From a candidate division WOR-3 bacterium (lineage in GTDB: Bacteria; Hydrothermota; Tepidihabitantia; Tepidihabitantales; Tepidihabitantaceae): a stretch of 64,000 nucleotides of DNA. The position numbers and the translations under genes were made by a program. Where the stretch lies: positions 192,001 to 256,000 of the forward strand of contig CBFGKH010000002.1 of the NCBI GenBank assembly GCA_965649295.1, written 5' to 3'. The notes below the pieces were generated by a model. That model ran no database searches. It was not told the origin of the DNA and saw only the letters and a program-made list of their open reading frames with translations. Each line of letters opens with the position of its first letter. The stretch's first letter is position 1. Below are positions 2,851-62,569 of the stretch, piece after piece.

Positions 2851-4773
2851 CTAGTGGGTCAGAATCAGTTTGGCCTCGGTCTGCTTACCGGCGGAGTTAG
2901 CACGGCAGAAGTAGATGCCAGGCGAGACCAACTGGCCGTGGTCGTCTCGGCCATCCCAGATTGCTGTTCCGGGTTCGAGCTGGCGAATCTGGCGACCGAT
3001 TGCATCACAGATGGTGAAGCCGGTGGGATTAGTAGTTGCAAGCCTGACGGTCTGACCGATGCGGCCAGGATTGGGCCAAGCCTGAATCCGGGCCCGCTGC
3101 GGCTGAGCCGGTATTTCGGCAATCCAGGTGAGCGGATCGTCGGTCACGTATTTGATTGCCCGGCCCGGAGCAAGACGGGCTGCGCCACGATGGTAGGTTC
3201 CGTCAAAGAGGCACTGGATGGCAATCGTGGCGGTCGGGTCCTGGATGCCGACTGTGGCTGAGCCGTAGCCGTTGGTGGTCAGGTATTGGGCGATGAGGAC
3301 GTTGTCGCCGGTAGTAGTGTGGACCGTGGTGTCGTAGATGATGAGCTGGAAGGTCTCCCAGGTGGTGCGCGATGCATAGGTGGGGATGCTGTCGTATTCG
3401 ATAATCAGCCGGTGGTTTTCCGGTTCATGGCGATACCAGATACCGCGGCCTTCAGGCGGATAGAGGTCGTCCCAGTTGAGACAGACCATTGGTGGCATAC
3501 CGGCTGCCGGTAGTGCGGCATTGGTGTAGGTGGCGATGCTGGTACTGCCCGGAGCGACAAAACCGTTGCTGCAGATTGAGAACTGGGTGTAGGTCTGACC
3601 GTAGTAACGCCAGACAAAGCCGGCTGGCAATGGGAAAGTCAGGGTCTGGTCGTCGCCCAAGATGACCTGGGTGCTTGGCATGCCGGCAATCTCAACCCAA
3701 CTGAACTGGGGATGGTTGGGATAGAGCGTGTCACATTCGTCGTAGGCCCAGTAGCGGGGCGGCTGGCGCGGGCCGTCAGGAATCGGGTCCTGAGCGCGGA
3801 TTTCGCCAACCACGACGCGCAGCGTGATGGTATCGTTCCAGGTGCCGGAGATGAGGAGCTGAAGCTCGGCGCTGTGCTCCAGCGGGCAGTTCGGCGCCGC
3901 GGCTAGGCGGAAGGGGGTCGCGGCGTTGTTGCGGGTTGAATCGGGCAGGATGGCAGGATAGGTACAGGTCGAGTCGAGTACGCTGACAAACGGGTCACTC
4001 GTGCGCAGCCGAGCATTGACGACTGTTGCCGGCTGGGTGCCGACATTGCGCAGGCCGATAATATAGCTGGCAGTCTCGCCCGGGTCGAGCTTGCGGTCGT
4101 TGTTGCCGCCGGGCGGCGGGTCGTAGATTGTTCGCTCGCTACAGACGAGATACGGGCCGCTAGCAGTTGAGACTAGGGAGATGTCGTCGGCGAAGACCTT
4201 CGCCGTCGGCGTCCCTCAGCCGGAGTAGGTGTAGCTGTAGAGCGCTACCTCAATCTGGGCGATGTCGCCGGGATTGACGCCCGGCAGGTTCTGGCTGACC
4301 TCGTCAACGACGTTGAGGGTGTAGCGCTGCCAGGCCGGATTGGTGATGCGGTAGAGACTGAGGGTTGGGCTCGGCACCCAGTTGGCATAGGTGGAATAGT
4401 AGTACCGGGTCTCGCCGAGCAGGTTTGAGGCTAGGTCGTAGTAGCAGACGCTGAAACAGGCTGCCGGCCAGCAGGTCGAGACCCCGCCGCTTTCGGCAAA
4501 ACTGGCCCAGAACTCAAGCTGAACAAGCGGACCAGGAACCATTACGGTTTGGCCCAGGCGTGCCCAGCCCGGGTTGTCGTATTGTCGGGTCATCGCCTCG
4601 TAGTCTGGGTCAGGGTGATAGGTGGTCGAGCGGTCGGCTGAGGGCGTGCCAGTGCCGCCGTAGGTGAATGTCCAACCGACCGTCAGCGGTTGTTCAAAGT
4701 CGCCATTGGTCAGCAGATTCTGACCGCCGGCAACCGCCAATAGTAGCGGTAGGAGTAGAATAGTCTTCTGCAA
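2851..4773 (-). CDS. Secreted protein, about 640 aa if the in-frame UGA at 4216-4218 (codon 186) is recoded: signal peptide, CBM4/9-like jelly-roll, Ig-like domain, further beta domain, FlgD/T9SS-like tail
   Basis: ORFs 4216..4773 and 2851..3813 are in the same frame; the 134 codons between them are open and protein-like (GTPTAKVFADDISL...GNNDRKLDPGET...LRNVG); SD AGGAGG before TTG; tail IWDGRDDHG..VSPGIYFCR..KLILTH. Confidence 0.85.
4188..4205 (-). promoter_or_regulatory. Candidate bacterial SECIS hairpin
   Basis: mRNA UGA-GGGACGCCGA-CGGCGAA-GGUC-UUCGCCG: 7-bp stem with GGUC loop starting 10 nt after the UGA. Confidence 0.65.
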
Positions 4774-6597: not shown

Positions 6598-6699
6598 CGC
6601 GTCTTTGGCGTAGTCTAGCCAAAGAGTAGCGGCAGGCAAGCAGCGGTTGCTAGAGGTTGGCCTGCGGGTTGTTGGGGCCTCTGGCGAGTGGTGTTCGGG

Positions 6700-7926
6700 T
6701 CAGTAGCGCCAGCTCAGTTCGAGGCTGAAGAGAGCAGTCGTGATGTTGTCGGTCGGCTCACTGTGCCATTCGGGACCGAGGTCGAGGGTGCCGGTCATTG
6801 CGAGCGCACCCGAACTGGTCCTGGTGATTGTCCAGTCGAGTAGGAGGGAGAGGTTGTCGAATAGGTAGTTGGTGGCGAGGACAGTGGTCTCGGTGAGGTA
6901 TTGACGTTGGCCCAGCCGGTTTTCCAGGGTGAGAGACGCGCGGTCGGTCTCGACAAAGTCTAGCCCAACGACGAGGGCCGGTTCGTTGAAGTTGTCCTCG
7001 GCGATACCGGAAAGGCTGCGGCTGTGACCGATTTCGAATCCAGCATACCAGTTGAGAGCGGTGTTGGGCTGCATTTTCGCCTCGAACCGGAGACGATTCT
7101 CGGCGGTGCCACCGTAGGCTGGCGATGCCGTATCATACGAGACCAGCAACAGCTCGTCGCTAATAGTCAGAGCCAGGTTGTTGGCAAGGCCAAACTCGAG
7201 GCCGGCATCGGCGGCGAGGTCCCAGCAAGCGGGGGTGGTGCCAACTTGGGTGCGACGGGCAATCTCGGCAGTGGTGAGGTAGTGGGGACCTGGGTCAAAG
7301 TAGTAGTCAACCGCAAGTCGTCCAGACTGCTCAACGTAGCCGAGCCGCGGGCTGAACCGGCGACGATGAGAATAGCCAAGCCCGAAACTGGAGAGTTCAG
7401 TGCGGACGAGTTCGAAGTCAGCATCGAACCGGTTGGTCAGATGGTCCTGATTCAGGCTGTCGGGGTTGAGAAAGTGGCCGTATTCGAGTTCGTCAGTGGT
7501 ACGGATGGTCAAGTTGCTGCTGGGTCGAAACGCAAGACTGAGTCGGCCGGTGTTACCCAGGGTACTCTGCTGCCAGTTAGTGTCAATAAGGCTGGGCAGT
7601 AGCCGGTGAAAGATGCGGGCGTCAGCAGCGCTGGCCAGCTTGAGGTCGAACCAGGTTGCCGGACTGAGCGCGAGTTCAAGCCGGGGCTGTTCGACAACGG
7701 CAGCCGAGCCGACGTCAAGGCTGTTGTCAAAGCTAAGGAGCGGGCCGCTGGCGACTGCATTCCAGAATAGGCGGGCTTCTGTTTCGAGCTTGGCAGTGTC
7801 TTTGCTGAAGAGGCGACGGCGAAGAGTATCTTCCTCGATAGTGACATAGCGCTGATTGGTATAGTCGAAGCCAAGGCCAAAGTCGCCGGTCAACCCGACT
7901 GCTAGCAGTAATAGAAGACCGAACAC
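6700..7926 (-). CDS. Probable outer-membrane beta-barrel protein
   Basis: Short signal peptide, alternating amphipathic beta strands, C-terminal ..FSLELSWRY beta-signal-like end. Confidence 0.65.
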   Translation of the reverse strand: MFGLLLLLAVGLTGDFGLGFDYTNQRYVTIEEDTLRRRLFSKDTAKLETEARLFWNAVASGPLLSFDNSLDVGSAAVVEQPRLELALSPATWFDLKLASAADARIFHRLLPSLIDTNWQQSTLGNTGRLSLAFRPSSNLTIRTTDELEYGHFLNPDSLNQDHLTNRFDADFELVRTELSSFGLGYSHRRRFSPRLGYVEQSGRLAVDYYFDPGPHYLTTAEIARRTQVGTTPACWDLAADAGLEFGLANNLALTISDELLLVSYDTASPAYGGTAENRLRFEAKMQPNTALNWYAGFEIGHSRSLSGIAEDNFNEPALVVGLDFVETDRASLTLENRLGQRQYLTETTVLATNYLFDNLSLLLDWTITRTSSGALAMTGTLDLGPEWHSEPTDNITTALFSLELSWRY

Positions 7927-16600: not shown

Positions 16601-17681
16601 AGTCCCATTGATTGTTGTTGTTGGTGTCGGCATAGAGCCAAATCTGGCCGTCATCAAGCTCGTCAATAACCATTGCCCGGCCGAGCTTGGCATATTTCAG
16701 GATTGAGTCAGGATGGTTCGAAGGGGCAAAGACCCGGGTATGGGAAGTCATCACTCCCTCGCCCGGCATATTGCCATGATAGTCGGCATTGCCGACCGCG
16801 GCGATGGTCTTGCCTTGGACCAGCAGGCTGTGCCACCAGCTTACTGCCTCGACGTCGCGGTCGCGGCCGCGGTCCTTGCCGGGCGGAAACCAGGTCGGGC
16901 CGTTGAAGACCTCAATCATATCCACGCTCGAATCGAGCACCGGGTAGTTGTCCCAGCCGAACCCGAGCTCGTCATCGCAGGGATGGTTAATCTGCACCAG
17001 TCCGCCGCGCCAGGAAGCGTCGTCAAGAAGCTGGCGCACCGTGCCGAGGGAGAAGACCTGACTGCCCTCAAATCCAAGCACGTTAGCATGGCCGAGGTCG
17101 CTTGACCATTCGGTGCCGCGAATCGGCTGCAACGTTCCGACCGGATGAAAGGCGGTGTCGTAGCACTGGGCAGTTTGGTCGTGGTCGGTAATGGCATAGG
17201 CGTGGGCGCCGGCACCGAGCGCAAGCTGGAGCAGGTTGTGCACCGAGTTGGTGCCGTCCGAGTAGGTGGTATGGGCATGGAAGTTTGCCTTGTACCAGGC
17301 ATTGTCACTCGTCCACATCCGCAACCAGAACTTTTGGGCCTTGCCGGTACGGAGTTCAATTTCGTTCTGGCCAGAGCGGAGCAGGCCTGAGTAGTCAGAA
17401 AGGTCGAGTCCGCCAATCCGGCTGCGCGGCAGTTCTTTGTGGCCGAAGGCAGCGACAAACTGGCCATTGGCCCAGACTGCCAGAGATTCAACACCCTCAA
17501 TGTTTGCATACCAGCCGGCAATGCGCCGACCAGCCGGTATCGTGGCCTGTAGCCGTAGCCGACCGTCACGGGCCAGGGCATCACCGTCAAATAGGATGCA
17601 GTCTGATTCTAACGGCGAAATGGCGGCTGCGAACGATAGTAGCAGCCCCAACAAAACTAGCAGTCTTCTACCAGAGCACAT
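13641..17681 (-). CDS. Large secreted PHP-domain (CehA/McbA-like) metallohydrolase with CARDB-like domains, Kelch-like propeller and T9SS-like tail
   Basis: Signal peptide; NFHAHTTYSDG, AITDHD, GTEW, HAN, INHP, EVFNG, GNADYH; repeated 'D..PANDT' Ig-like units; KGNKT.EFY.YD repeats; PSGVYLLQL...TRKLVIEH. Confidence 0.88.
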   Translation of the reverse strand: MCSGRRLLVLLGLLLSFAAAISPLESDCILFDGDALARDGRLRLQATIPAGRRIAGWYANIEGVESLAVWANGQFVAAFGHKELPRSRIGGLDLSDYSGLLRSGQNEIELRTGKAQKFWLRMWTSDNAWYKANFHAHTTYSDGTNSVHNLLQLALGAGAHAYAITDHDQTAQCYDTAFHPVGTLQPIRGTEWSSDLGHANVLGFEGSQVFSLGTVRQLLDDASWRGGLVQINHPCDDELGFGWDNYPVLDSSVDMIEVFNGPTWFPPGKDRGRDRDVEAVSWWHSLLVQGKTIAAVGNADYHGNMPGEGVMTSHTRVFAPSNHPDSILKYAKLGRAMVIDELDDGQIWLYADTNNNNQWDLVMGQHIRVTGTKTIKFRAEIEDADYLDDFWVYNKTGTVHNHWFWNPFGSYDYAYEWTVTYNATSTDFVRAYLENSVNDPELLTNAIYVNYPDYELGPISLLSQRRNWPDSVNLLQPETLRLRLSCTAGFSPWRYGLTVACDTTRFSIVDWQTTGTGIGQVTTRTNGQYRILEWQGGYTWGNRLAVGTTFDYWLVVRPKASGHQPILFRSWANDRIQDIKYEPATGFAGPEGRYWHRESVFVRLRDVQPLAIEVPGAAIDSSGPITPRVRVRNNGNTAASFTSQLTIGTGYIGTATVSGLGPGLAATIDCSPTWQPQRGTHALQLITTLAGDMVPANDTLSGSVFVAVRDIGVASIDIPNGTLVESTLVTPRVDIANYGNTAIVGSLGLAILDTGGTIVASRELTGLTVPLGGLADVELPPEWLATPVGDYSVVAWTVSADDLLPANDTANTNCRVTAAGRLDVGVTSIIAPVGTIDTGVRVIPQAIVSNEGDLPASFNAVFCILRHGSEVYTSLQSVANLGPGASTTLTFAEWPHPHDTGSYVGRCSLVLAGDQNPANDTISRQFTVVAGPNWPGGWHEVAAIPPGSQARLIQDGGWLAYTSPNQRIYASRGNKTRDFYAFDPIANTWLAKASIPAGPINRAVGKGASGIADGDRYIYTVKGNKTLEFYRYDIVQDSWHELEPVPAGTHPVKGGTDLAYVVHHDTGYVYLLKGYRNEFYRFNTTTLRWETERPAPADASPKYDKGSFLVSDGSGVLYAHQAKYHKLYRYDVPTRSWSADVLHGMPFVSRYFNRTRKSNDGGCAAWSNGCIYALKGGNTQEYYRYLPQHDSWQELDTLPQWGYTQRKKKVKSGADITSYAAGILFALKGNKTLECWRWVDWPMAYSLRPSRSGANTVATSDSQSSIRGPNPLRSGLIRLATERLGNSTTLSIYDALGRCVLSRSLPASALSAGHWDLALGSLPSGVYLLQLESGSNTITRKLVIEH

Positions 17682-17751
17682 CTGAGCCTCCCAGCTTCTA
17701 TTCCACAGGCTGTGGTCTAGCAAGGCCGATACTTCAGCCTTGAGCCGGCCA

Positions 17752-17843: not shown

Positions 17844-20800
17844 TTAGTGCTCGATAACGAGCTTGCGCGTCAGCACATTGTTACTCGACTCGAGCCGAAC
17901 GAGATAGACGCCTGCCGGCAACTGGCGAAGGTCAAGAGCCATTGGCCCGGAACCGGTACCTACCAGTTGGCGAATGAGGACTCGCCGGCCAAGCGGGTCG
18001 AAGAGCGAAATCGTGGCTGTGCGGCCAGGTAAGCCAGCAGTGATGTTGAGAATGCCGGAACGGAGCGGATTGGGTGCTATTATCAATCGCCACTCGTCGG
18101 CTAGTGGGCCGTGTTGAGTCACGCCGTCGGCCTGGGGCCGGCCGGAGTAGAGGTCGGTAGTCGGCGTGTAGCGCCAGAACTCGCGGGTCTTGTTGCCTTT
18201 GAGGGCGTAGATGATGCCGTCAGCGCGAGCCGCAATCCCGGCTCCACCCTTGACCAGCCGGCGCTTGCGGGTAACCGGGCTGTAGCTGGGCAGAGATTCG
18301 AGTTCGGTCCAGGAGTCCCTGCTGATCCGGTAGCGGAAGAAGTCCTGACTGTTGGCTCCCTTGAGCGAGTAGATGTCGCCGGCGTAGTAGGTGGCGCAGC
18401 CGCCTTCTTTTGACTTCCGCGTCCGGCCGTAGCGGTTCGTGAGCGGCATTCCGGTCAGCATTCGGCTTGTGTCCCAGCGGCCAGTTGCCAGGTCAAACCG
18501 CCAGAGTTCGTGGTAGCGGGCCTTGTGCAAGTAGAGGCTCATCGTACCGTCAAAGACAAGCCAGGAGCCGTACTCAATCTTCGGCCCGCGACCGACGGGA
18601 ATGCCGGGTAATTCTTGCCAAGTGTCAGCGGTGATGTCATAGCGGTAGAACTCAAGGGTACCGCTGCCTTTGGCAAGATAGACCGACTGTTGGCCACCGT
18701 AGTCAACGTAGGCCATGGCAGTGCCGCCCTTCAGTTTGCGGCGCCTCACTCCCAAGGGGATTGATTCGAGCTCAAGCCAGCTATCACCACTGATGCTGTA
18801 GCGATAGAACTTACTCGTGTTGTTACCCTTGGCCGTATAGATGTAGTTGTCACCGTCAGTAGTCGCGCCCGAGCCTTTGGCTGGCGGCCTGTCCTCGCGG
18901 CCACGCTCATACGGGTTGCGCAGAGTCCAGCCGCCGCCGACAGGATCGAAGCAGTAGAAGTCTTCGGTCTTGTTGCCTTTGGCGGCAAAGAACCGGTCGT
19001 GGTTGCGATTATAGACGAGCCAGCCACCATCACCGACTGGTTTGTTGGAGTTGTCGAGCGGGACCGGATTCAGCTCCACCCAGCCGGCTGGTGCCGGCGC
19101 GCGCACAGCGAGCCAGGTTCGGGCAGTATCGTTGCTGCGGCGAGTATCAGTACCCAGCAGCGTTATGCCGACAACACTGTGGAGGCCGGCCGGACCAGCA
19201 GCCCAGGTCGGGAAGACAACCTGCTGATAGCTGCCGGGTGCATGGTTGACCACATCTACCGAGCAGTCATAGACCGTGCCGATGCGTACGAGAGCGCGAT
19301 AGCTCTCAGTCGTGTTGCCGTAGTTATAAAGCGAGCAGACCGGCGCTATCACTCGTCCCAACGGAATGTGGCCCGCCGGCACCAGTACCCGGGTGCAGCC
19401 GACGTCTGGTCGCGGATAGAGGACGCGCACCTCGGTGACCTGACGGTCGTCCTCAGGCGTATTGTCTCCAGCCAACCGAGTCGAGCAGGAGACAACGATT
19501 ACCCCAGTCGGTGACGCAACCCAGTTCGGGAAGGTTACCTCCCAGGTCACGCCGGCCGGATGGTTGCTGACCCATACTGACTCACGGTAGATGAGCGGGC
19601 CACCGATGTCCATCACGACAAAGTAGGATTCGGTGAACGAACCGTAGTTACGAACCGAGCAGGCCGGCGTTATCACCGCGCCGGAGTCAACTGTGCCGGT
19701 AGGTCTGACAATGAACGAGCAGCCGACATCGTGGCCGCCTGGCCGGCGCACGACGCAATGACCGGTGACTGAGTCGTTCGGAACGAGGTCCGGGCTGTAG
19801 ATAGTGCGGGCCTCCAGCGGAGTCACTCCGACAGTGGTGGCGGTCCAGTCGGGGAACGGCCCGACTTCGATTCTGTCACCCGGTCCCAAGTCGCTAACCC
19901 ACAGCGATTCGCGGTAGGCGCCGATTCTCAGTCTGGCCCAGAACGAGGCCGGTACGTTGCCAAAGTTGGCAACCGAGCAGGCCGGCGTTATCACCGTGCC
20001 CGAGTCAATCACCGCGCCGTCAGCGGGAGCGACGAGCGCCGTTGCTCCAACATCCCGTACCCGCACCATCACCGGCTGGGTCAGCGTGTTGTCGTCAGGC
20101 CTCACATCGTTGGGGATGATCGCGCTGGCAGTGGCAGTCCAATCCCCGCGCTGCCACCCGTCGAAGGCGCCGAAGCTGATGGTCAGTCGCTCGCCGGGTA
20201 GGGCCGAGACAGTCTGGGTCGCGTTGTAGTTCGCCAGATCGAATGTGACACCAAACGTCTCGGGTACGTTGCCCTGATTACCCACAGTGACTACCGGCGC
20301 GACAAGCTGGGTCGAGTCAATCGTATCGGTCGGTGCAACAATGTCCTCGACACTCACGTCTCGCACACGAACAAAGACCGAGTCAAGGGCAACGTTGTTC
20401 AGAAGATTGGTGTCACCATCGAGCGTAGTTGTGGCGATGACAAGATGTCGGCCCCGCGGCCAGTCGCTGTAAGCCGGGAAGGTGACGCGGGCACCGGTTC
20501 CTGGGGCCAGGCCGAACACAGTCTCGGTTGCCACATAGAACGGCGGCATGGTCGCGCCGATGCTGATTGTCACCGGAATGTCAATTGGGAAGTTGCCGTG
20601 ATTATGGACCGAGCAGGCCGGGGCAACAGTCTGAGTCGAATCAATCGTGTCGGTCGGTGCAAATATCCGCCAAGAGCCGCCGTCACGGATTTCCGGGCAG
20701 ATGTCAACCCGGCTGACACCAAAGTCGGCAACCGTCATTACCGACATGGCATAGGTTTCGATGACACTGGTGATGACACTGAAACCGGCCCCAATGTTGA

Positions 20801-22091
20801 GGCTAGCCAGGACCAGGGTGTCAATCACGCAGACCGGCCGGTTGCCATTGGTGTCGAGGGTGACAAAGTGGGCGTCGTCCTGGCCGATGGCCCAGGGGCT
20901 ATTAGTGTAACCGGCAATGGCATAACGGATGGTATCGCGGACAATGGCAAAGGCCTTCTCGTCCTGGGCCCCGGGCTGACTGGGATGAACCCGCGACCAG
21001 ACCGGGTTGCCGTTGACTGGTTCAACCTTCAGCGCCAGCATGTTGAAGTTCGGCACCCCTGGCCCGGCGCCGTTGGTCCAGCCGGCAACGGTGTAGCCCC
21101 GGAGCGAATCAACGACAAGACAGCGCTCGCCCATCGCTTTCTCTTCAGACAGGTCCCAGCCATAGACCCTTGCCCAGCTCGTGACGCCAGCCGGCGAAAG
21201 TTTCCAGAGCAGAATGTTGTCGCTGAGCGAGCCACCCGCGCCCCAGTTACCGCTCCAGCCGGCAACGATGATGTCCTTGCCGTCATACGCCACTGACCAA
21301 GCCTCGGTACTGGAAGCAGCGCTGGTGATTACTGGCTGATTGGCAGCCGGCCAGACCAGATTGCCGTTCAGAGCATCAACCTTCATCACAAAGGCGTTGG
21401 TCGTGCCGAGACCGCTGAACGGCTTGAACCGGCCGCAGACCACATAGGACGGATTGAGTGGACTTGGCACCTCGCAGATGCTCAGGCCTTCGGTCCAGTC
21501 GCTGCCCAGCAGATAGTTCCTTGCCCAGATCGGTGTACCAGTTCCGTTCAGCTTCAGCACCACTGCCTGGCGTATACCGCCTAGCTCGGAGTAGCCGGTA
21601 ACCGCATAACCACCGTCAGCAGTCGGGATCACCGCCATCGCCTTGTCATCACCGCCGCGGCCAAAAGTCTGGCCCCACATCAGGTTGCCGTCAGCCGCGA
21701 GCTTGACCACAAAGATATCGGCGCTGGGCGGGTTGAGGTTGCGGGTCCAGCCAGCGATAACGCAGCCGCCGTCAGCAGTCGCGGCGACCGATTGAACAAC
21801 GTCGGCAAAGTTACCCGGCGGTATTGGCCCGGTTGTTCGCGCCCAGGAGACAGCGCCGTTCGGCTTCACCTTGAAGACGAGTAGGTTAGTGTCAGCCGGG
21901 CCGCCAGTCGCCATGGTCGTGTAACCGGCCACAAACCAGCCCGAATCAGCAGCAGCGGCAATACTCAGCGCGCGCTCGCTGAGCTGGGTGCCATAGCAGC
22001 CGCACGGCAGCGGCACCGCAGTAGCAGCAGCCGGCAGCAAGAAACTAAGAAAGACAAGAAGGAGAAGGTGCTGAAGGCAGAAGCGGCTCAT
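17844..22091 (-). CDS. Large secreted protein: N-terminal beta-propeller, five CARDB-like domains, Kelch-like propeller, T9SS-like tail
   Basis: SD GGAGG; signal peptide; 'TADGG..AG.T' and 'K....G...W' blades; 'PACSV.N.G' repeats; PAGVYLVRL...TRKLVIEH. Confidence 0.88.
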   Translation of the reverse strand: MSRFCLQHLLLLVFLSFLLPAAATAVPLPCGCYGTQLSERALSIAAAADSGWFVAGYTTMATGGPADTNLLVFKVKPNGAVSWARTTGPIPPGNFADVVQSVAATADGGCVIAGWTRNLNPPSADIFVVKLAADGNLMWGQTFGRGGDDKAMAVIPTADGGYAVTGYSELGGIRQAVVLKLNGTGTPIWARNYLLGSDWTEGLSICEVPSPLNPSYVVCGRFKPFSGLGTTNAFVMKVDALNGNLVWPAANQPVITSAASSTEAWSVAYDGKDIIVAGWSGNWGAGGSLSDNILLWKLSPAGVTSWARVYGWDLSEEKAMGERCLVVDSLRGYTVAGWTNGAGPGVPNFNMLALKVEPVNGNPVWSRVHPSQPGAQDEKAFAIVRDTIRYAIAGYTNSPWAIGQDDAHFVTLDTNGNRPVCVIDTLVLASLNIGAGFSVITSVIETYAMSVMTVADFGVSRVDICPEIRDGGSWRIFAPTDTIDSTQTVAPACSVHNHGNFPIDIPVTISIGATMPPFYVATETVFGLAPGTGARVTFPAYSDWPRGRHLVIATTTLDGDTNLLNNVALDSVFVRVRDVSVEDIVAPTDTIDSTQLVAPVVTVGNQGNVPETFGVTFDLANYNATQTVSALPGERLTISFGAFDGWQRGDWTATASAIIPNDVRPDDNTLTQPVMVRVRDVGATALVAPADGAVIDSGTVITPACSVANFGNVPASFWARLRIGAYRESLWVSDLGPGDRIEVGPFPDWTATTVGVTPLEARTIYSPDLVPNDSVTGHCVVRRPGGHDVGCSFIVRPTGTVDSGAVITPACSVRNYGSFTESYFVVMDIGGPLIYRESVWVSNHPAGVTWEVTFPNWVASPTGVIVVSCSTRLAGDNTPEDDRQVTEVRVLYPRPDVGCTRVLVPAGHIPLGRVIAPVCSLYNYGNTTESYRALVRIGTVYDCSVDVVNHAPGSYQQVVFPTWAAGPAGLHSVVGITLLGTDTRRSNDTARTWLAVRAPAPAGWVELNPVPLDNSNKPVGDGGWLVYNRNHDRFFAAKGNKTEDFYCFDPVGGGWTLRNPYERGREDRPPAKGSGATTDGDNYIYTAKGNNTSKFYRYSISGDSWLELESIPLGVRRRKLKGGTAMAYVDYGGQQSVYLAKGSGTLEFYRYDITADTWQELPGIPVGRGPKIEYGSWLVFDGTMSLYLHKARYHELWRFDLATGRWDTSRMLTGMPLTNRYGRTRKSKEGGCATYYAGDIYSLKGANSQDFFRYRISRDSWTELESLPSYSPVTRKRRLVKGGAGIAARADGIIYALKGNKTREFWRYTPTTDLYSGRPQADGVTQHGPLADEWRLIIAPNPLRSGILNITAGLPGRTATISLFDPLGRRVLIRQLVGTGSGPMALDLRQLPAGVYLVRLESSNNVLTRKLVIEH

Positions 22092-22357
22092 ACAAACCTC
22101 CGGAGAGCTAGAGCTTGGCAGCCAGTCCCGCAGTCGCGCTGCGGGCAACGACGCAACTAAAGTCTAACTTGCCCGCTGGGAGTGTCAATCAGCCCAACCG
22201 CGGCCCGACGACATCACTATACAAACAGACGGTGTTCGAGCAGAAGTCGCTTCCCGGCGTGGTAACGCGTTGGGTTCTGCTGGTGGTCATGCACCTTCGC
22301 TGTCCTTGATGCAGAAGACTGTTGCTGCTATATTCGGGGAAATCGGCCCCAACGGCG

Positions 22358-22532: not shown

Positions 22533-23741
22533 GTGAGTACGACATTCACGTGGCTATCTTTCTCTGAGAAGGAACGACGGCGGGCACTTGATATCATTAG
22601 TCAGTTCAGAGAGCAGGAAACGCGCGATGAGTTGGGGATAGGGTCGGTCCGCGATGCCTATGCAGAGATACTCTTCCCCGGCACCGGAACCGTGCAGACC
22701 CGAGCCAAGTACTTTCTGTTCATTCCGTGGATCTACTTGGCGCTGGAGCGCAAGCAGGTGAAGGGCGTTGATTTTGAATCTCGGGCACGGAGGGCAGAGA
22801 TTGCTCTGATTGAGAGTCTCAGAAAGTCCGGCGACCGGGCCGGTCTCATCGGCGTCGATGCGAGGGCATCGCTGAAGCGCCTACCCAGCGAGATTTACTG
22901 GAGCGGGTTACGGACATGGGGCATCAGGCTTTTCCCGGGCGCGCGGTATCAGTACTTCCGGTACATCGACCGTTTCTATGAGCACCAGCGATGTGGTCAA
23001 GCTGACGGCGACGACCAAGAGAGCGGCAGCGCTGTTCGAGGGAACTGGCACAGCGGCCTGCCGGAACCTGACCCTGGTTTTCCGACAAATGCGGAATTCG
23101 CCCTCTCGCGTGACCAGGCCGTCTACCTCAAGGAGCAGGTGATGTTGAGGGCACCAAACTCCATGCTGGCCTTTCTTGTCGACAGGGGTAAGCCGGTTGG
23201 TGAGGAGGTGAGGTTTCCTTGGGAGCACCCTCAATATGCCGAGATGGGTGACGTCATACAAAGTGAACTTGGGCACGCCCGGCGCTTCTCAGACGCTATG
23301 TACGGAGCCACCATGCTCTATAACCTGATGCTTGCGGAGAAGCGAAGAGAAGGCGAGTGGCGGGAGTCTTACCGTGAAGAACTGGATGGTTGGCGCGACG
23401 ACATCAGCAAGAGGCGGCGCGAGTTCAGGGCGTGGGATATGACCGCATTATGGCACATCGCTGGCAAGAGTGGGATCGTGATTCCGCGACTTGCCAAACT
23501 GTTCACCGAGAGCTGGGTTACCCTTGCCATCCAGAGCGGTCTGTCGGAAACGAACTGGGAGCAGCGTGCACGGCAGATGGTCCATGATCGTGAGCGGCAA
23601 GTGAAGGGGGCGGCCGCTCGGCTTGACGACTCGCGAAAGCTGGAAAGATGGTCAGGTGCTTCGGCGGCCTTCCGAATCAACTACCGCTGGCCACAGGCCA
23701 GGAGAATCACAAACGACATCTTGGCGGGGCTCGGAAGATGA
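22533..23741 (+). CDS. DUF6361-like protein; first gene of a three-gene defence operon (Azaca-like)
   Basis: N-terminal 'WL.FS..ERRRALD...ETRDELGIG.VRDAYA..LFPGT.TVQTRAKYFLFIPW', 'PS.IYWSGL..WGI'. Confidence 0.8.
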   Translation: MSTTFTWLSFSEKERRRALDIISQFREQETRDELGIGSVRDAYAEILFPGTGTVQTRAKYFLFIPWIYLALERKQVKGVDFESRARRAEIALIESLRKSGDRAGLIGVDARASLKRLPSEIYWSGLRTWGIRLFPGARYQYFRYIDRFYEHQRCGQADGDDQESGSAVRGNWHSGLPEPDPGFPTNAEFALSRDQAVYLKEQVMLRAPNSMLAFLVDRGKPVGEEVRFPWEHPQYAEMGDVIQSELGHARRFSDAMYGATMLYNLMLAEKRREGEWRESYREELDGWRDDISKRRREFRAWDMTALWHIAGKSGIVIPRLAKLFTESWVTLAIQSGLSETNWEQRARQMVHDRERQVKGAAARLDDSRKLERWSGASAAFRINYRWPQARRITNDILAGLGR

Positions 23742-25597
23742 ACAGTCTGCTTGCTCCACAGGACCGAACCGGTCTGTTGGAAATGCTGCGGCCGCCCGAT
23801 GGTTACCACATCACCGACGCCATCGGCGCCACCTATTCGCTTGACCTTGCCACCTTGCTTTCGATCCCGGTGGCAATGACATTTCCGTACTGGGAAGATG
23901 ACAGTCATAGCTCAGAGACTTCCTCCTTAGTGGTCTTACAATCACTGCGGCGCCAGGCGGACCGGATTACGGTGTTTTGCCAGGCAGGGGGCATCAAGTT
24001 GCCCACACGCAACAAACTCCTGTTGAGCTACCTCGAGAAATCGGTATACGATGTCACCGCGAGGAGCCGTTTCGGAGTCTTCCACCCAAAAGTATGGGTA
24101 ATCCGGTTCGAAGGGCAGAAGAAGAGCATACGCTATCGGCTGCTCTGTCTTACCAGGAATCTCACGTTTGACCAGTCGTGGGACACGGCGCTGGCGATGG
24201 ACGGCGAACTCACTGGCCGCAGCAAGCCCTACGCGAAAAACCACGGCATATGCGACCTCCTAGGTGCTCTACCAACCCTTGCTCTCGCCCGACCCGTGCC
24301 GCGGGAGCGGGTGTCGGCTATCAGGCGTATTGTGCACGAGCTCCGAGTCGTCGATTTCGAGGTACCGGACGGCTTCGATGATTACGTTACCTGGTCGTCC
24401 GGAATCGGACGGCGCAGTTCGTGGCCATTTGAACGCTGGTGCGACCGCTTCCTAGTAGTGTCGCCATTCCTGTCGGACGTGGTTCTTCGTCGTCTTGTCA
24501 AGAACAGCAGCGAACGGCGGTCATTACTGATTTCGCAGCCTGCCGCCATCGATTCGCTGCCTTCCAGCACCAGGGCGGCGTTCAAGAAGACCTTCGTTCT
24601 CAATCCAGCGGCTGAACTCGATGGCGCGGCAATGGTTGAGTCTGAAGAAGATATTGCCCAAGCCGGCGGTCTCCACGCCAAGCTGTACCTGCAGGAGAAA
24701 GGCTGGTATGCCACAGTCTGGACCGGCTCAGCCAATGCAACCGATGCCGCGTTCGAACAAAACGTTGAGTTCATGGTGGGGCTGAAGGGAATGCGTAGCC
24801 GAGTTGGGATAGACGTTCTCTTGGCCAAGGACAAGAACCAAACCAGTCTGTTCGATATGCTGGAGGAATATTCACCCGAAAGCGACAATCAGCCAGCGGG
24901 TGATGTGCAAGCGCGGCTCGACAGAGCGGCCGCTGACGCCGCACGCTCGCTGGCTGAATCCCGACCGGAGTGCAGGGTCAGCCGCAGGCAGAGAGGGTGC
25001 TTCACGATGCAAGTCAGAACAACGAGGGGCAGGTGGCATCCGTCCGACTCCATTTGTGCCGTCTGCTGGCCGGTCAGTCTACAGGAATCGTCGGCCGTCA
25101 CCCTAGACAGAACTGGCTCCGCTACGTTTGAGAACGTGACGATAGAGGCACTCACTTCGTTCTTTGCCTTTGACGTAACCTTCTCTGAGGGCCCACGCCG
25201 TTCGCTCCATCGCCGGTTTGTCCTGAACCTGCCGCTGGTCGGTGTGCCGGCAGAAAGAGAGGATGTTGTTCTGCGAACGCTCTTATCCTCTCACGGCCAC
25301 GTGCTGCGGTTCCTGTTGCTGCTCCTGGGCAATGACGAAGTAGGTGGTCCTGACCATCACACGGGCTGGTCGTGGTCCCAAGACCCGTGCGGCGTTCGAT
25401 CGGAATCCGTAGTTACTGAGCCAACGTTGTTTGAGTTGCTGGTACGCACGCTGGTGCGAGACCGTGACCGTCTCAAGGAAGTCGCTCGCCTGGTTGATGA
25501 CCTGCGTCGGACTGATGAAGGAACCAAGTTACTACCACCGGGCTTTGACAGCATTTGGGATCCGGTCTGGGAAGCGTATCAGAGGACCCGCCGATGA
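23738..25597 (+). CDS. Phospholipase D-superfamily (nuclease-like) protein
   Basis: Two HxK motifs (FHPKVW...TRNLT; LHAKLY...GSANAT...NVE); ATGA overlaps on both sides. Confidence 0.85.
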   Translation: MNSLLAPQDRTGLLEMLRPPDGYHITDAIGATYSLDLATLLSIPVAMTFPYWEDDSHSSETSSLVVLQSLRRQADRITVFCQAGGIKLPTRNKLLLSYLEKSVYDVTARSRFGVFHPKVWVIRFEGQKKSIRYRLLCLTRNLTFDQSWDTALAMDGELTGRSKPYAKNHGICDLLGALPTLALARPVPRERVSAIRRIVHELRVVDFEVPDGFDDYVTWSSGIGRRSSWPFERWCDRFLVVSPFLSDVVLRRLVKNSSERRSLLISQPAAIDSLPSSTRAAFKKTFVLNPAAELDGAAMVESEEDIAQAGGLHAKLYLQEKGWYATVWTGSANATDAAFEQNVEFMVGLKGMRSRVGIDVLLAKDKNQTSLFDMLEEYSPESDNQPAGDVQARLDRAAADAARSLAESRPECRVSRRQRGCFTMQVRTTRGRWHPSDSICAVCWPVSLQESSAVTLDRTGSATFENVTIEALTSFFAFDVTFSEGPRRSLHRRFVLNLPLVGVPAEREDVVLRTLLSSHGHVLRFLLLLLGNDEVGGPDHHTGWSWSQDPCGVRSESVVTEPTLFELLVRTLVRDRDRLKEVARLVDDLRRTDEGTKLLPPGFDSIWDPVWEAYQRTRR

Positions 25598-28500
25598 AAC
25601 GACACTCAGGGCTGGTGGACGTCGAGAAGGTCTTGTCCGTGCTCAAACGCTTTCAGCGCGACACCGTGGACTACGTCTTCGGTCGGATGTATCTTGACAA
25701 CGACAAGACACGGCGGTTTCTGGTAGCCGATGAGGTCGGCCTCGGGAAGACACTCGTGGCACGCGGAGTCATCGCGCGCGTGATAGAGCATCTGGACAAA
25801 GAAGGACTTCCGCGGATAGACATAGTCTATATCTGCTCTAATGCCGATATCGCCCGTCAGAACATCGCGCGACTGAACGTAACCGGCAAGGATGACTTTG
25901 AGTTCACCTCGCGAATCACGATGCTGCCCGATGTCCTGCGCGACCTGAATGCTAACCGCGTTAATCTGGTGTCATTTACCCCGAGTACGTCATTTGACTT
26001 GGAGTCCGGCACCGGCCGAGCCGAGGAGCGAGCACTAATGTGCCGGTTGCTGGGTGGCGCATTCGACCTGCCGAGAACCGGTCTGATGAACGTCCTGCAG
26101 GTGAAAAAGGAGACCGGCGACTTCCGCTGGCTGGTTCGTAAGTACGAAGGCTGCGATTTGAGTAAGGAGATTTCTGATAGCTTCCCCCGCGCCGTAAAAC
26201 GGGCTTCCGACATTCTCCCGCAGCTACGTGAGCTCTGTCGAGCATTTCGCCGGACACGTAAGAACATCCCTCCTGATGAGCGGAACGCGTGCAGGATGAT
26301 AGTTGGCAAGTTGCGTGCGCTGCTGGCAGCTACGTGTCGTGAAGTGCTGAAACCCGCCCTCATTATTCTCGACGAATTCCAGCGGTTCAGGTACCTCCTT
26401 GAAGGTACCAGTGAAGCAGGACTGCTCGCCCGTGAGATGTTCGAGTATTCCAAGGGAGAAACCCAAGCACGGGTTCTACTTCTCTCGGCGACTCCGTACA
26501 AGATGTACACGATCGACGGAGTTGATGACGAGGATCACTACAAGGATTTTCAGCACACGCTCCAATTCCTGGCAGAGGGTTGCGAAGATGCCCCCGACTT
26601 CGAGTTGCTGCTGCGAGAATACCGCAGCGAACTACTAAGGCTGAACCATCCCAGAGGGCGATTCCAGGAGGCCAAAGAGCGACTGGAGAAGGCCCTGCGT
26701 AAGGTGATGGTGCGAACCGAGCGGCTGGCCGTGACTCCGGACCGCAGCGGAATGCTCAACTTCTCGACTGAGCTGCCAGTTCGCCTGCGGGCCTCCGATC
26801 TCTCAGCGTACGTCGCCACACAACGGCTGGCCACAGAACTTCGTTGCGGAGACGTACTGGAACTGTGGAAATCGACACCCTATATGCTGAATTTCATGGA
26901 GGGGTACAAGCTGAAGCAGCTTCTGCGGGAGCGCGTCGAAAAGAACGGAGGCGGGGCAGCGATCGTCCGGGCAATCGAAGGGTTACCCGACTTGCTGGCG
27001 CGTGCTGATATCGAGCGCTACCGGGCAATCGACCCTGGCAACGCCCGGCTTCGGGCGCTGGTGGAAGACATCCTTGACAAGGGACTTTGGAAACTGCTCT
27101 GGGTTCCGCCTGCCCTTCCTTATTACGACTTAGGCGGTCCGTTCTCCGACGAGGCGGCCCAGCGGTTCACAAAGAGGCTTGTATTCTCCACTTGGCGGCT
27201 GGTGCCACGGGTCATCTCGGCCGTGCTCAGCTACGAAGCTGAGCGACGAATGGTCACCTCCTTTTTCCCCCGTGCCGTCAATCCGCAAGGTGAGAGAAGA
27301 CGTCGTCCGCCCCTGCTCAGATTCAGCAAGACCGATGGCAGGTTGACCGGCATGCCAGTCCTTGGCCTGGTCTACCCATGTTTCACTTTGGTGCGCGAGT
27401 GTGATCCACTGCAGTTCTTTATCGAACGAGGCCAACGGCCTTCTCTCCAGCTGCTGATGCACGAAATGGAGCACAGAATCCAGCGGATGTTGGGCAGACT
27501 GAGGGTGCGTAATGTCGAAGATGGTCGCGAAGATGAGACTTGGTACTGGCTTACGCCCTTGCTGCTCGACTACGAGCACAACCCGCGGGCATTCTCGTCC
27601 TGGTTCGATCGCGACGACCTGGCACAACGCTGGAGTCGCGGTCTCACCGACGAGGTGTCAGCATATTGGGAAGATCACGTGAACGAGGCACGTCGCCGTG
27701 TTGACGAGTACCGGGCGGGAAAGCAGGTGCTCGGGCGCCGCCCAGCGGACTTGGCAGAGGTCTTGGCACAGTCGGGGATTGCCGGGTTCGGCACCGTCGT
27801 CCTGCGGGCACTGTGCCGCGTTGCCGGCAGTAGAAGGGCCGCTACTAATGTACTGGTTCGCGACGCGAGCGCAGCGCCGGCGCACTCATTTCTCTCCCTT
27901 TTTAACGCGCAGGACGCCATGCCGATGATCAGAGGGTTGACCAAGAGAGGAAACGCCAAGGGCCAGCCCTACTGGCGACTTGTCATTAAGTATGCCCTTG
28001 AAGGGGGACTGCAAGCGGTGATGGACGAGTACGTTCACTTACTGCATGATTCGCCCGAGTATGTCGACCACGCCCCTGAAAGAGCTGTCGCGGCTGTAGC
28101 TGAAGCAGTGCAAACCGCGATGGCGCTTAGGCCAGCACAGCCAGGTATAGACTGGGTCAGCGTCACCCCCCGCAGCCGTAAGGTCAGAATCGAGGGCGGG
28201 AGACTACGGAACAGGTTCGCAGTGCGGTTCGGCGACGATGAGGCGGATCTGGCACGCGAAGGCGTGCGTGCCGAACAGATTCGCAAGGCCTTCAATTCGC
28301 CGTTCTGGCCATTTGTGCTGGCAACGACTTCGGTCGGCCAGGAAGGCCTTGACTTTCATTGCTATTGCCATGCGGTGGTGCACTGGAACCTGCCAGCTAA
28401 CCCTGTTGACCTGGAGCAACGCGAGGGACGCGTACACCGCTACAAAGGACTCGCGGTTCGCCGCAACCTGGCGGTCCGCTACGGGTCCGGCAGGTTGCTG

Positions 28501-28812
28501 GCGGGCGGAGCCGATCCGTGGGCCACGATGTTCCAACTTGCGGTACGCGACCAACCGCCGGGGCGCGGCGACATTTGGCCCTATTGGGTTTGTACCTGCG
28601 AGAAAGGGGTAATGATTGAGCGCCACGTGCCAATGCTACCACTAAGTCGAGAATCCGATCGGCTAAGCTGGCTCCAACGCTCGCTGGCCGCCTATCGCAT
28701 GGTCTTTGGTCAGGCCCGCCAAGAGGACCTGCTGCAGTACCTCATGGCGAGCGGAGCGGCTGACAACGTTGCAGACTTGACAATGGACCTGAGTCCACCG
28801 GGTCAACGCTAG
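25594..28812 (+). CDS. SF2 helicase
   Basis: ADEVGLGKT, LDEFQ, LLSATPY, FNSPFWPFVLATTSVGQEGLDFH, DLEQREGRVHRY. Confidence 0.92.
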   Translation: MKRHSGLVDVEKVLSVLKRFQRDTVDYVFGRMYLDNDKTRRFLVADEVGLGKTLVARGVIARVIEHLDKEGLPRIDIVYICSNADIARQNIARLNVTGKDDFEFTSRITMLPDVLRDLNANRVNLVSFTPSTSFDLESGTGRAEERALMCRLLGGAFDLPRTGLMNVLQVKKETGDFRWLVRKYEGCDLSKEISDSFPRAVKRASDILPQLRELCRAFRRTRKNIPPDERNACRMIVGKLRALLAATCREVLKPALIILDEFQRFRYLLEGTSEAGLLAREMFEYSKGETQARVLLLSATPYKMYTIDGVDDEDHYKDFQHTLQFLAEGCEDAPDFELLLREYRSELLRLNHPRGRFQEAKERLEKALRKVMVRTERLAVTPDRSGMLNFSTELPVRLRASDLSAYVATQRLATELRCGDVLELWKSTPYMLNFMEGYKLKQLLRERVEKNGGGAAIVRAIEGLPDLLARADIERYRAIDPGNARLRALVEDILDKGLWKLLWVPPALPYYDLGGPFSDEAAQRFTKRLVFSTWRLVPRVISAVLSYEAERRMVTSFFPRAVNPQGERRRRPPLLRFSKTDGRLTGMPVLGLVYPCFTLVRECDPLQFFIERGQRPSLQLLMHEMEHRIQRMLGRLRVRNVEDGREDETWYWLTPLLLDYEHNPRAFSSWFDRDDLAQRWSRGLTDEVSAYWEDHVNEARRRVDEYRAGKQVLGRRPADLAEVLAQSGIAGFGTVVLRALCRVAGSRRAATNVLVRDASAAPAHSFLSLFNAQDAMPMIRGLTKRGNAKGQPYWRLVIKYALEGGLQAVMDEYVHLLHDSPEYVDHAPERAVAAVAEAVQTAMALRPAQPGIDWVSVTPRSRKVRIEGGRLRNRFAVRFGDDEADLAREGVRAEQIRKAFNSPFWPFVLATTSVGQEGLDFHCYCHAVVHWNLPANPVDLEQREGRVHRYKGLAVRRNLAVRYGSGRLLAGGADPWATMFQLAVRDQPPGRGDIWPYWVCTCEKGVMIERHVPMLPLSRESDRLSWLQRSLAAYRMVFGQARQEDLLQYLMASGAADNVADLTMDLSPPGQR

Positions 28813-32709: not shown

Positions 32710-34926
32710 ATGAGCCGAGCAAGCGTAGTCTTCTGTCTGCTGGCGCTGGCAGCGGTGGCCTGGGCAGACTGGACGAGCATCGGGCCAGAAGGCGGGCCAA
32801 TCTACAGCGGCGTGGCGACAGCGACGAGTCCGCCAACTGTTTATGCTGCGCCGACCGGTTACAACCGGCCGCTATACCGAACCCGCAACGGTGGTGTAAA
32901 CTGGACACCTACTGCCAGTGCGCCGGTGTATGGGCCGACAGTGATGGCCGCTCATCCGACCGATACCAACCGGCTCTATGGCATCTACAGTTCGCTCTTT
33001 TTCCGGACAACTGACGCGGGCGCAACCTGGACCCAGACATCGCTGGGAACAAACACGGTCGGGTACGATATCGCGGTCAATCCGCAGAATCCGCAGGTTA
33101 TTTACTCAGTCGGCTATCGCTACGACGGTTCGGCCTGGCGGCTGACGAGTATCAAGACGACTGATGGCGGCGCAACCTGGACCCCGACTCAGCTCGATAC
33201 GGCGAGGACTGCTTATGGCTATGCCTGTGCAATTGACCCGGTTGATACCAATGTTGTCTATGCGGGCGGCTATGCCGATACCATGACCGCGTTCTACAAG
33301 TCCACTGACTGCGGTGCTACTTGGACGAAGATTGCCTGGCCCCGGAATGACTATTATCTATACTCGATTGCGGTCAGTCCGGTTGACCACAACATCGTTT
33401 TTGCCGGAACGCTGTATGGCATCTACCGCTCGACTGACGCTGGCCTGACCTGGACCCGGCAGAGCACGAGCATCTATAACTACCGCATTGTCTTTGCGCC
33501 CGACAACCCGAACGTGATGTACTCGGCCGCCTACAGTGGTGTTTATCGTTCGACTGATGGCGGCCGCACCTGGACCATCTCGACTGCCGGCATCCAAGGC
33601 TCGAACCTGCGTTTTGTCGTGACGGTGCCGGGCCAAGCTGGCGTTGTTTTCTGCGGCACGACTGCAGGGATGCACAAGTCAACTGACTATGGCCAGACCT
33701 GGACACCGGTCAACAGCGGCGTCTTGGTCGGTTCTATCCCGGCGATTGCCTTTGACCCGAGCGCTCCCGGCACCGCTTTTGCCGAGTTCATTGACAACGC
33801 CATCTTCAAGACGACCGACGACGGCGTCACCTGGGAGCGGCAGCCGACCGTGCTTTCCTGTGGCAATGTCTGTAGTATCATCATCGAGCCTGCGAACCCA
33901 CAACGACGCTGGATGTTCGAAGCTTCGGGCTGAGGGACCGCTGAGCTCTTCCGGAGCACAGACGGCGGGTCCGTCTGGACAGTAATCGAAAGCTGGATGA
34001 ATGATGGCGGAGCGATGGCAGTCTCTTTGCTCAACCCGAACTATGTCTTCTGTACCGGCAACATCTATGTGTCTGGGCAGTGGTGCATTGCGGTCTCGCA
34101 TTCAAGTGACGGTGGTACGACTTGGGAACATGATACGATTCCTGGGGGCAGCAACGGCTTTGCCGTGGCCTTTGATGCGGTTGACCCGAACCTGGTCTAT
34201 GTCGGCGGCGACAGCGCCTACAGCTACACCTATCCGCAGTTGCTGGTCTCTACTGACCTTGGGGTAACCTGGACGCCGCGGCACGCTGGTCTGAATGGTC
34301 GGGTCTGGGCAATTGCGGCTGATCCGGTTCAGTCCGGTGTTGTCTATTGCGGCACCTACCGCGGTGTGTTCAAGTCCACCAACGCCGGAGCAAGCTGGAC
34401 TGCCACGCCGCTCGCTTACGAAACCCGCGCTCTTGTCGTTGACCCGACTGACCCGGCAAAGCTCTATGCCGGCACCTATGGCAACGGCGTCTATGTCTCA
34501 ACCAATGCCGGTGCGACTTGGACAGCGATGAACACCGGGCTTGGCTGCCTTCGGATACTGTCACTAGGGTTGCGGCCCGGGCCTGGCAGTGTGCTCTATG
34601 CCGGCACGGATGGTGGCGCAGTCTATCGCACCGACATCCTGACCAGCGTCACTGACCAGCCGGCGAGCGAAGTTCGGGCCGCGAGGTTCGAGATTACCCC
34701 CAATCCATGCCGCGACCGTGCCTTTGTTCGTCTCCTCACTCAGGCGCACGATAGTTCAATTACTGCGACTGTCTCCCTCTTTGATGTCACTGGCAAGCGG
34801 GTGCTATCTACCAAAGGCGCTGGGTTCTGGGAACTCGATGTCTCTGCGCTGGCACCCGGTAGCTATTTTGTCTCGCTTGCCGGGCCAGGTCAGCGCCTGA
34901 TAGCGCGGCTAATAGTGACGCGGTAG
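32710..34926 (+). CDS. Secreted BNR/Asp-box (VPS10/Ycf48-like) beta-propeller protein with T9SS-like tail, about 738 aa if the in-frame UGA at 33931-33933 (codon 408) is recoded
   Basis: ORFs 32710..33933 and 33997..34926 are in the same frame; intervening codons GTAELFRSTDGGSVWTVIESW contain an Asp-box; S/T-x-D-x-G-x-T-W repeats on both sides; tail PNPC...LAPGSYFV...RLIVTR. Confidence 0.85.
33959..33977 (+). promoter_or_regulatory. Candidate bacterial SECIS hairpin
   Basis: CAGACGG-CGGGU-CCGUCUG, 7-bp stem with loop 33 nt after the UGA; an alternative longer fold spans 33935-33972. Confidence 0.45.
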
Positions 34927-62566: not shown

Positions 62567-62569
62567 AAC

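Follow-up and report, generated by a model that had tools for sequence, protein, structure and literature searches.

Within a 64,000-nucleotide stretch of contig CBFGKH010000002.1 from a candidate division WOR-3 bacterium (contig positions 192,001 to 256,000; hereafter the window, in whose coordinates all positions are given), we analyzed gene B, which encodes a secreted tandem beta-propeller protein and is interrupted by one in-frame TGA. Reading through this codon joins an open reading frame (ORF) of 407 aa (32710-33933) to one of 309 aa (33997-34926), giving a protein of 738 aa. The coding features of gene B, including the sorting domain of the type IX secretion system (T9SS), are as follows.

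32710..34926, + strand: gene B, secreted tandem beta-propeller BNR/Asp-box protein; frame of 738 codons with a single internal TGA and a TAG stop
32710..32766, + strand: signal-peptide-like N-terminal segment MSRASVVFCLLALAAVAWA, followed by an invariant ADW (read from the sequence)
33859..33873, + strand: CGNVC motif, Cys384 to Cys388 (from the alignment with homologs)
33931..33933, + strand: in-frame UGA, codon 408, proposed selenocysteine codon in the context S-G-U-G-T (GGC TGA GGG AC)
34699..34917, + strand: T9SS sorting domain (Por_Secre_tail, Pfam PF18962), residues 664-736

An in-frame UGA inside a propeller blade

The leader of gene B is hydrophobic and ends, as read by eye, in AWA before the DW pair; it is kept in homologs, and its residues 3-13 are modelled as a helix. 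At the other end, the PF18962 match scores 28.7 bits against a cut-off of 27, and homologs have the same tail. The leader is found only in the piece upstream of the TGA and the T9SS tail only in the downstream piece. Between them, the Pfam families Sortilin-Vps10 (8.6e-39) and BNR (1.2e-19) match the protein, with repeats flanking the TGA on both sides, and a script search found 12 matches to the Asp-box pattern S-x-D-x-G-x-x-W. The blade that an earlier note on this DNA had placed before the TGA (IAFDPSAPGTAFAEFIDNAIFKTTDDGVTW) and the one that it had drawn across the codon (IIIEPANPQRRWMFEASG-*-GTAELFRSTDGGSVW) were both found as quoted. The LSCGNVC motif that the same note put about 19-23 residues upstream is also present, and its two cysteines lie 24 and 20 residues before the TGA.

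We modelled the read-through protein with AlphaFold2 on a 51-sequence alignment, obtaining a mean predicted local distance difference test score (pLDDT) of 92.9 and a predicted template modelling score (pTM) of 0.83. The modelled fold is continuous across codon 408, whose residue occupies the turn that links strands 400-405 and 412-416 within one blade. Termination at residue 407 would leave a blade incomplete. In the Foldseek search, the top PDB matches were glycoside hydrolase family 74 (GH74) tandem propellers, with template modelling (TM) scores of 0.57-0.64. The GH74 xyloglucanases (5fkq, 2ebs, and 6p2o) likewise consist of two tandem seven-bladed BNR/Asp-box propellers, but they share 16-21% identity with gene B and contain no selenocysteine, and the listed GH74 structures lack a T9SS tail. 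Placing residue 408 relative to the GH74 catalytic Asp by sequence alignment was uninformative, because the alignments followed the repeats and were out of register. PorZ, a type IX secretion protein (5m11; rank 25 in the fold search), resembles gene B in having two beta-propellers and a C-terminal T9SS domain; with a TM score of 0.45 and 16% identity, the likeness is no evidence of the same role. BNR repeats are also shared with Ycf48, the 'photosystem II stability/assembly factor-like' family (PF14870, Pfam E = 1.4e-15), but Ycf48 itself, at about 330 aa, has just one propeller of seven blades, and the Ycf48-type name carried by pieces of gene B is an annotation transfer with no functional meaning here.

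To follow the TGA in homologs, 5.8 billion proteins were searched with residues 330-500 as the query. Among the best 120 of 1948 matches, the 27 closest protein clusters are all 405-423 aa long and 59-82% identical over the part that they cover (residues 330-407). Seen as protein ends only, all of them finish in ...W[ML][FL]E[AG]SG with CGNVC invariant. A search of representative proteins, with 150 matches listed, was swamped by giant multi-repeat BNR proteins and was usable for single-stretch matches only; four of these, at 40-56% identity and again seen as protein ends, stop at query residue 407.

Homologs with DNA came from a scan of GTDB genomes that returned 39 loci. Seven of these (L001-L006 and L008) carry eight close copies, 49-58% identical to the gene in the window, with two copies in tandem in L004; L007 was left out because its contig ends before the TGA site. 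TGA follows E[AG]SG in all eight copies and TAA or TAG in none, and the frame stays open beyond the TGA in every one, which is the continuation on which the earlier note had made its proposal depend. Six copies run 312-331 codons to a stop, and those in L003 and L005 are open to the end of the available DNA. The frame after the TGA reads G[TNA]AELF[RK]ST.GG..W, and all copies with a complete end have both the leader and a C-terminal sorting-type tail. In the read-through alignment of the window gene and these eight copies (nine sequences), mean pairwise identity is 0.63 upstream of the TGA versus 0.62 downstream. Residues S406, G407, G409, A411, E412, L413, F414, S416, T417, G419, G420, and W423 are invariant, and the stretch 404-423 is among the densest runs of invariant columns.

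Two of the homolog loci show further features. The copies of L004 (3580-5796 and 6001-8223) are tandem gene B paralogs in one metagenome-assembled genome, each with a TGA and a hairpin and with nearly identical C-terminal tails. In L005, the copy from 4145 meets no stop for at least 820 codons after the TGA; its C-terminal region departs from the T9SS tail and reaches the end of the locus.

One in-frame stop is what most often marks a broken gene, and the TGA might come from a pseudogene or from a sequencing or assembly error. Against this, the window and eight homolog copies from independent assemblies share the codon, the same end point recurs in the 27 and four protein clusters, and the two sides of the TGA are equally conserved. 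Judged from this comparison, the coding constraint across the TGA excludes a pseudogene or assembly error, and we give such an origin practically no weight. The UGA could also be a true stop in a conserved split gene, in which case a secreted fragment of 407 aa and a protein of 309 aa with its own start would be made. Gene callers annotate the split form in every database entry seen, and an ATG lies 63 nt downstream of the TGA. However, the break would fall inside a blade, between strands 2 and 3, leaving a T9SS tail without a signal peptide downstream and the reverse upstream. Between the TGA and the ATG at 33997 lie 21 codons that show the highest conservation in the gene and are 57-90% identical to those of homologs. 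This ATG, which the earlier note had considered as the possible start of an independent gene, is replaced by Leu codons in three of the eight homolog copies. Moreover, the stop is always TGA, and in collinear homologs a sense codon takes its place. Given the coding constraint across the TGA, an independent downstream gene appears very unlikely.

RNA structure downstream of the UGA

The following structures lie in the mRNA after the UGA, one of them being the best candidate for a selenocysteine insertion sequence (SECIS).

33945..33957, + strand: hairpin 1, GCUCU-UCC-GGAGC, starting 11 nt after the UGA (from the nine-sequence alignment)
33959..33977, + strand: hairpin 2, CAGACGG-CGGGU-CCGUCUG, best SECIS candidate; 7-bp stem, UGA-loop spacing of 32 nt
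33934..33972, + strand: alternative long interrupted stem, incompatible with hairpin 2; hairpin 1 forms its tip (fold prediction)

The two alternative folds described in the earlier note, the hairpin at 33959-33977 and the longer stem, are both present. The 67 nt after the TGA are 89% identical across the nine sequences. Hairpin 1, with arms GCUCU/RGAGC, is invariant in 9/9, and so are the synonymous sites of its Leu CTC and Ser AGC codons. Codons GAG, CTC, TTC, AGC, and GGC are identical in all nine sequences, and for these five, codon usage alone gives 0.049 per sequence. Fully invariant codons make up five of the nine invariant-residue codons in +1..+16, versus 27 of 157 outside codons -16 to +16. 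Escherichia coli fdhF is the textbook bacterial selenoprotein gene with a SECIS inside the ORF directly after the UGA, and its minimal element has the same 11-nt spacing as hairpin 1.

Hairpin 2 is encoded by the codons of the Asp-box T-D-G-G-S-V-W. Its loop has G at positions 2-3 and reads CGGNN across homologs, and in the window sequence the hairpin alone folds at -9.3 kcal/mol. The bacterial SECIS model, as quoted in PMC13188914, has a stem of 4-16 bp, a loop of 3-9 nt with a G in its first two nucleotides, a distance of 16-37 nt from the UGA, and a minimum free energy of at most -7.5 kcal/mol. With 7 bp, the 5-nt loop CGGGU, and its spacing of 32 nt, hairpin 2 satisfies the model, and seven of the nine sequences pass a strict SECIS scan.

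Comparison among homologs showed 95.4% of cells paired for the tandem hairpins 1 and 2 and a covariation score of 0.181 that was reached by none of 500 shuffles. Within hairpin 2, three of the seven pairs are changed on both sides, a count reached by 5 of 500 shuffles. In L006, GAC...GTC has become ACT...AGT, so that three consecutive pairs are kept while both amino acids are changed. As a control, the corresponding 19 nt of the 103 other Asp-boxes in these genes were folded as well. These segments had a mean of -2.0 and a minimum of -6.9 kcal/mol, whereas the nine segments after the UGA ranged from -5.4 to -9.9 kcal/mol (mean -8.9), with 8/9 at or below -7.5. Since none of the 103 reached -7.5 kcal/mol, the idea that hairpin 2 is a mere by-product of Asp-box codons was rejected. 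The earlier note had rated the SECIS evidence of gene B as weaker than that of gene A, a second gene of the window with an in-frame TGA; after the homolog comparison, given the shuffles (0/500) and the Asp-box control (0/103), the evidence for gene B is not weak.

The long stem is the minimum-energy fold of the 60-nt stretch and is 97.4% paired across the alignment, but its covariation was matched by 53 of 500 shuffles and its tip loop has no G. As the SECIS, it was kept as an alternative only.

The residue at codon 408

TGA terminates 13 of the 35 genes in the window, including leuS, trmFO, and holA. The standard code therefore applies without global reassignment, and a genome-wide use of TGA as a sense codon was rejected. 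Two collinear full-length homologs encode an amino acid at this position. P0237 (679 aa, 34% identity) has Cys at position 408 (GG-C-GYDEVYRS) and also a Cys aligned with Cys384, while P0188 (745 aa) has Leu at 408 (EGSG-L-GAAELFKSTDGG) and Cys at neither 384 nor 388. Cys384 is kept in all relatives of the UGA form and in P0237; Cys388 is lost in P0237 and in P0206, which retains Cys384. As far as the one Cys sequence indicates, positions 384 and 408 vary together and Cys is the sense counterpart of UGA, which would be the usual signature of selenocysteine.

Our preferred explanation, to which we assign a probability of roughly 0.8, is that gene B encodes one exported two-propeller T9SS protein of 738 residues whose UGA408 is read as selenocysteine (Sec) with the help of the downstream mRNA structure. 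The earlier proposal of a single multi-propeller protein of 738 aa, recoded at one loop residue, gains support from the continuation in homologs and from the turn position in the AlphaFold2 model. The choice of Sec over another read-through residue is suggested by the Cys homolog, the SECIS-like hairpin, and analogy with known systems. The protein would comprise a signal peptide of the Sec-export type, two seven-bladed propellers arranged as in GH74, and the C-terminal type IX sorting domain. When the ribosome arrives at UGA408, SelB with Sec-tRNA-Sec, held by the downstream hairpin or hairpins, would insert Sec. The recruiting structure would be the next 45 nt or so of mRNA, consisting of the conserved small hairpin that starts 11 nt after the UGA and the 7-bp hairpin with a G-rich loop formed by the Asp-box codons. 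The full-length protein would then be exported by the Sec export system and subsequently by the T9SS. Sec408 would sit in the ninth blade, where strand 2 turns into strand 3, and Cys384 in the loop entering strand 1, which by blade topology should place both on the same propeller face. Homologs have both thiol/selenol positions (384 and 408) or neither, and we therefore infer that Cys384 and Sec408 may pair at the propeller surface, as a selenylsulfide redox site or a metal-binding site.

Alternatively, the UGA could be read through by a near-cognate or dedicated suppressor tRNA that inserts Trp, Cys, Gly, or Arg, the hairpins serving as a read-through stimulator and not as a site for SelB. 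No machinery for Sec was seen in the window or at the homolog loci, and neither hairpin 1 nor the long stem has the G that the SECIS model of PMC13188914 places in the loop. The GGC-UGA-GGG-AC context is common to two unrelated genes, B and A, and could be a read-through signal at the nucleotide level; furthermore, P0389, the only full-length database relative of gene A, has W at the TGA position. That W may itself stand for a TGA. Read-through of this kind also does not readily account for P0237, which has Cys at the site, not Trp or Gly, together with the partner Cys384. Hairpin 2 fits the model and is maintained by compensatory changes, and the strict conservation of TGA in 9/9 sequences at 49-58% identity is hard to explain for an ordinary residue. 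We therefore regard insertion of a residue other than Sec by such a tRNA as unlikely, though less so than a split gene.

Several observations count against the reading of UGA408 as Sec. The Cys form was found once only, in P0237 at 34% identity, and no close Cys form occurred among the best 120 of 1948 matches or the 268 collected proteins. No selA, selB, selD, or tRNA-Sec gene was found within the 64-kb window or the flanks of L001-L008. The Cys384-Sec408 contact is deduced from blade topology. On the RNA side, hairpin 2 is bulged in L002 (-5.4 kcal/mol) and borderline in L006 (-7.8), both of which fail the strict scan, and the compensatory changes come from just these two of the nine sequences. 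The 32-nt spacing of hairpin 2 is near the upper limit of the model, RNAalifold favours the long stem with its G-less tip loop, and 7.5% of all TGA triplets in the window (152 of 2034) pass a simple SECIS scan. For the 60-nt fold of the window sequence, z is -0.98 and 33 of 200 shuffles do equally well; it is because of the homolog comparison only, not the window sequence alone, that the hairpin evidence goes beyond chance. A permutation test on synonymous sites (mean codon identity) gave p = 0.055. No Rfam family, SECIS or other, matched at gathering score in the window, and none gave a meaningful match at E <= 10 near either TGA.

Compared with bacterial selenoprotein genes as presented in PMC13188914, gene B is alike in having a UGA followed by a model-fitting hairpin, an aligned Cys homolog, and strong conservation on both sides. 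It differs in having two adjacent conserved hairpins instead of one, and in that none of the Sec machinery of such systems was seen in the 64-kb window or at the homolog loci. The protein belongs to no known selenoprotein family and is neither a thioredoxin-fold protein nor a molybdopterin enzyme. According to the same source, most known selenoproteins of bacteria are redox enzymes of the cytoplasm or periplasm, and their Cys homologs are abundant and usually the commoner form, whereas Sec forms of gene B far outnumber Cys forms in our searches. If the reading is correct, gene B would stand apart by its propeller scaffold, its type IX export, and a UGA in almost every ortholog found.

Gene B probably founds an undescribed selenoprotein family. 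The recoding mechanism is known, but the family itself appears to be unreported. A literature search on selenoproteins with BNR propellers, WOR-3, or type IX secretion, and on WOR-3 with type IX secretion, returned nothing relevant. BNR, propeller, and WOR-3 are absent from the main texts of PMC13188914, PMC12013277, and PMC13326102, and BNR and propeller are absent from the main text of PMC9312934; the supplements of PMC13188914 may still list the family. The examined part of the BSepDB supplement contains no WOR-3, BNR, propeller, or T9SS, and the lineage does not occur in the examined part of the BSepDB genome list. The 27 and four database entries of the family that we examined are all half-proteins, either unnamed or named 'photosystem II stability/assembly factor-like'. 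With its hairpin placed in the codons of an Asp-box, the family would offer a clean test case for SECIS elements built from conserved protein-motif codons.

Gene A and other features of the window

Gene A, on the opposite strand, is a second candidate selenoprotein gene in the window.

2851..4773, - strand: gene A, secreted protein (640 codons); its in-frame TGA at 4216-4218 shares the 11-nt context of gene B
4188..4205, - strand: hairpin of gene A, sequence CGGCGAA-GGUC-UUCGCCG, with its loop 17 nt downstream of the UGA and a folding energy of -9.7 kcal/mol

The two genes are alike in their leader, in the kind of C-terminal tail, and in the GGC-TGA-GGG-AC context (peptide SG-U-GT), but the fold of gene A is unrelated to that of gene B. 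The pattern GGNTGAGGNAC has three matches in the window versus 0.74 expected. Gene A has no Pfam match, and the UniRef name of one relative is CBM-cenC domain protein. For the 185-aa piece upstream of the TGA, we considered the best 120 of 132 relatives. Of these, 108 terminate in [SGD]G at a length near 185 aa, and several carry the name candidate division WOR-3. One upstream Cys, Cys101, is highly conserved (96% among 117 of them). Six distant relatives (P0381, P0383-P0385, P0387, and P0388) end in ...TC, ...GC, or ...WC, not ...SG, which would put a Cys directly before the presumed TGA and may indicate a C-U dyad in this subgroup.

A Cys form of gene A was sought among longer proteins and was not found. 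There were two matches, and P0389, the sole strong longer relative, has Trp at the TGA position. This W probably comes from a gene-calling table with TGA as Trp applied to a short contig; the case is ambiguous, a true TGG being the alternative.

Together, the two genes allow a broader, still tentative proposal, which we hold with clearly less confidence than the reading of gene B. An uncultured lineage, probably candidate division WOR-3, may export selenoproteins to its surface by type IX secretion, one module having been placed independently in a tandem beta-propeller and in a jelly roll resembling a carbohydrate-binding module (CBM), two unrelated scaffolds that are not oxidoreductases, with Sec nearly obligatory and Cys forms rare. 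The shared module would consist of Sec in a Gly-flanked turn (S-G-U-G-T/N), the GGC-UGA-GGN context, a hairpin formed by the following codons, and a single partner Cys. Were this so, it would point to an extracellular selenylsulfide switch or metal site and to an unsurveyed selenoproteome. More than 100 database entries of gene A are cut at the same point. With entries of both genes cut at the TGA, annotation and protein counts of these genomes are therefore wrong at these genes.

A third pair of same-frame ORFs separated by one TGA (5236-7926, - strand; TGA at 6700-6702) was rejected as a case of recoding, the sequence after the TGA not looking like coding DNA. Its halves, an unnamed 408-aa protein and a DASS/CitMHS transporter, look like ordinary adjacent genes.

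Secreted proteins are abundant in this region. On the - strand, 13641-17723 and 17844-22148 encode two very large proteins with T9SS tails, one carrying a CehA/McbA metallohydrolase domain and the other SBBP/delta-60 repeats. At 22533-28812 (+ strand), three overlapping or abutting ORFs, the last of which is a SNF2-like helicase with weak matches to DpdE and DISARM DrmD, may form a defence locus. At 60099-63658 (- strand), a fused AmmeMemoRadiSam A+B protein adjoins an acyl-CoA dehydratase activase-like gene, a pair that is consistent with an anaerobe.

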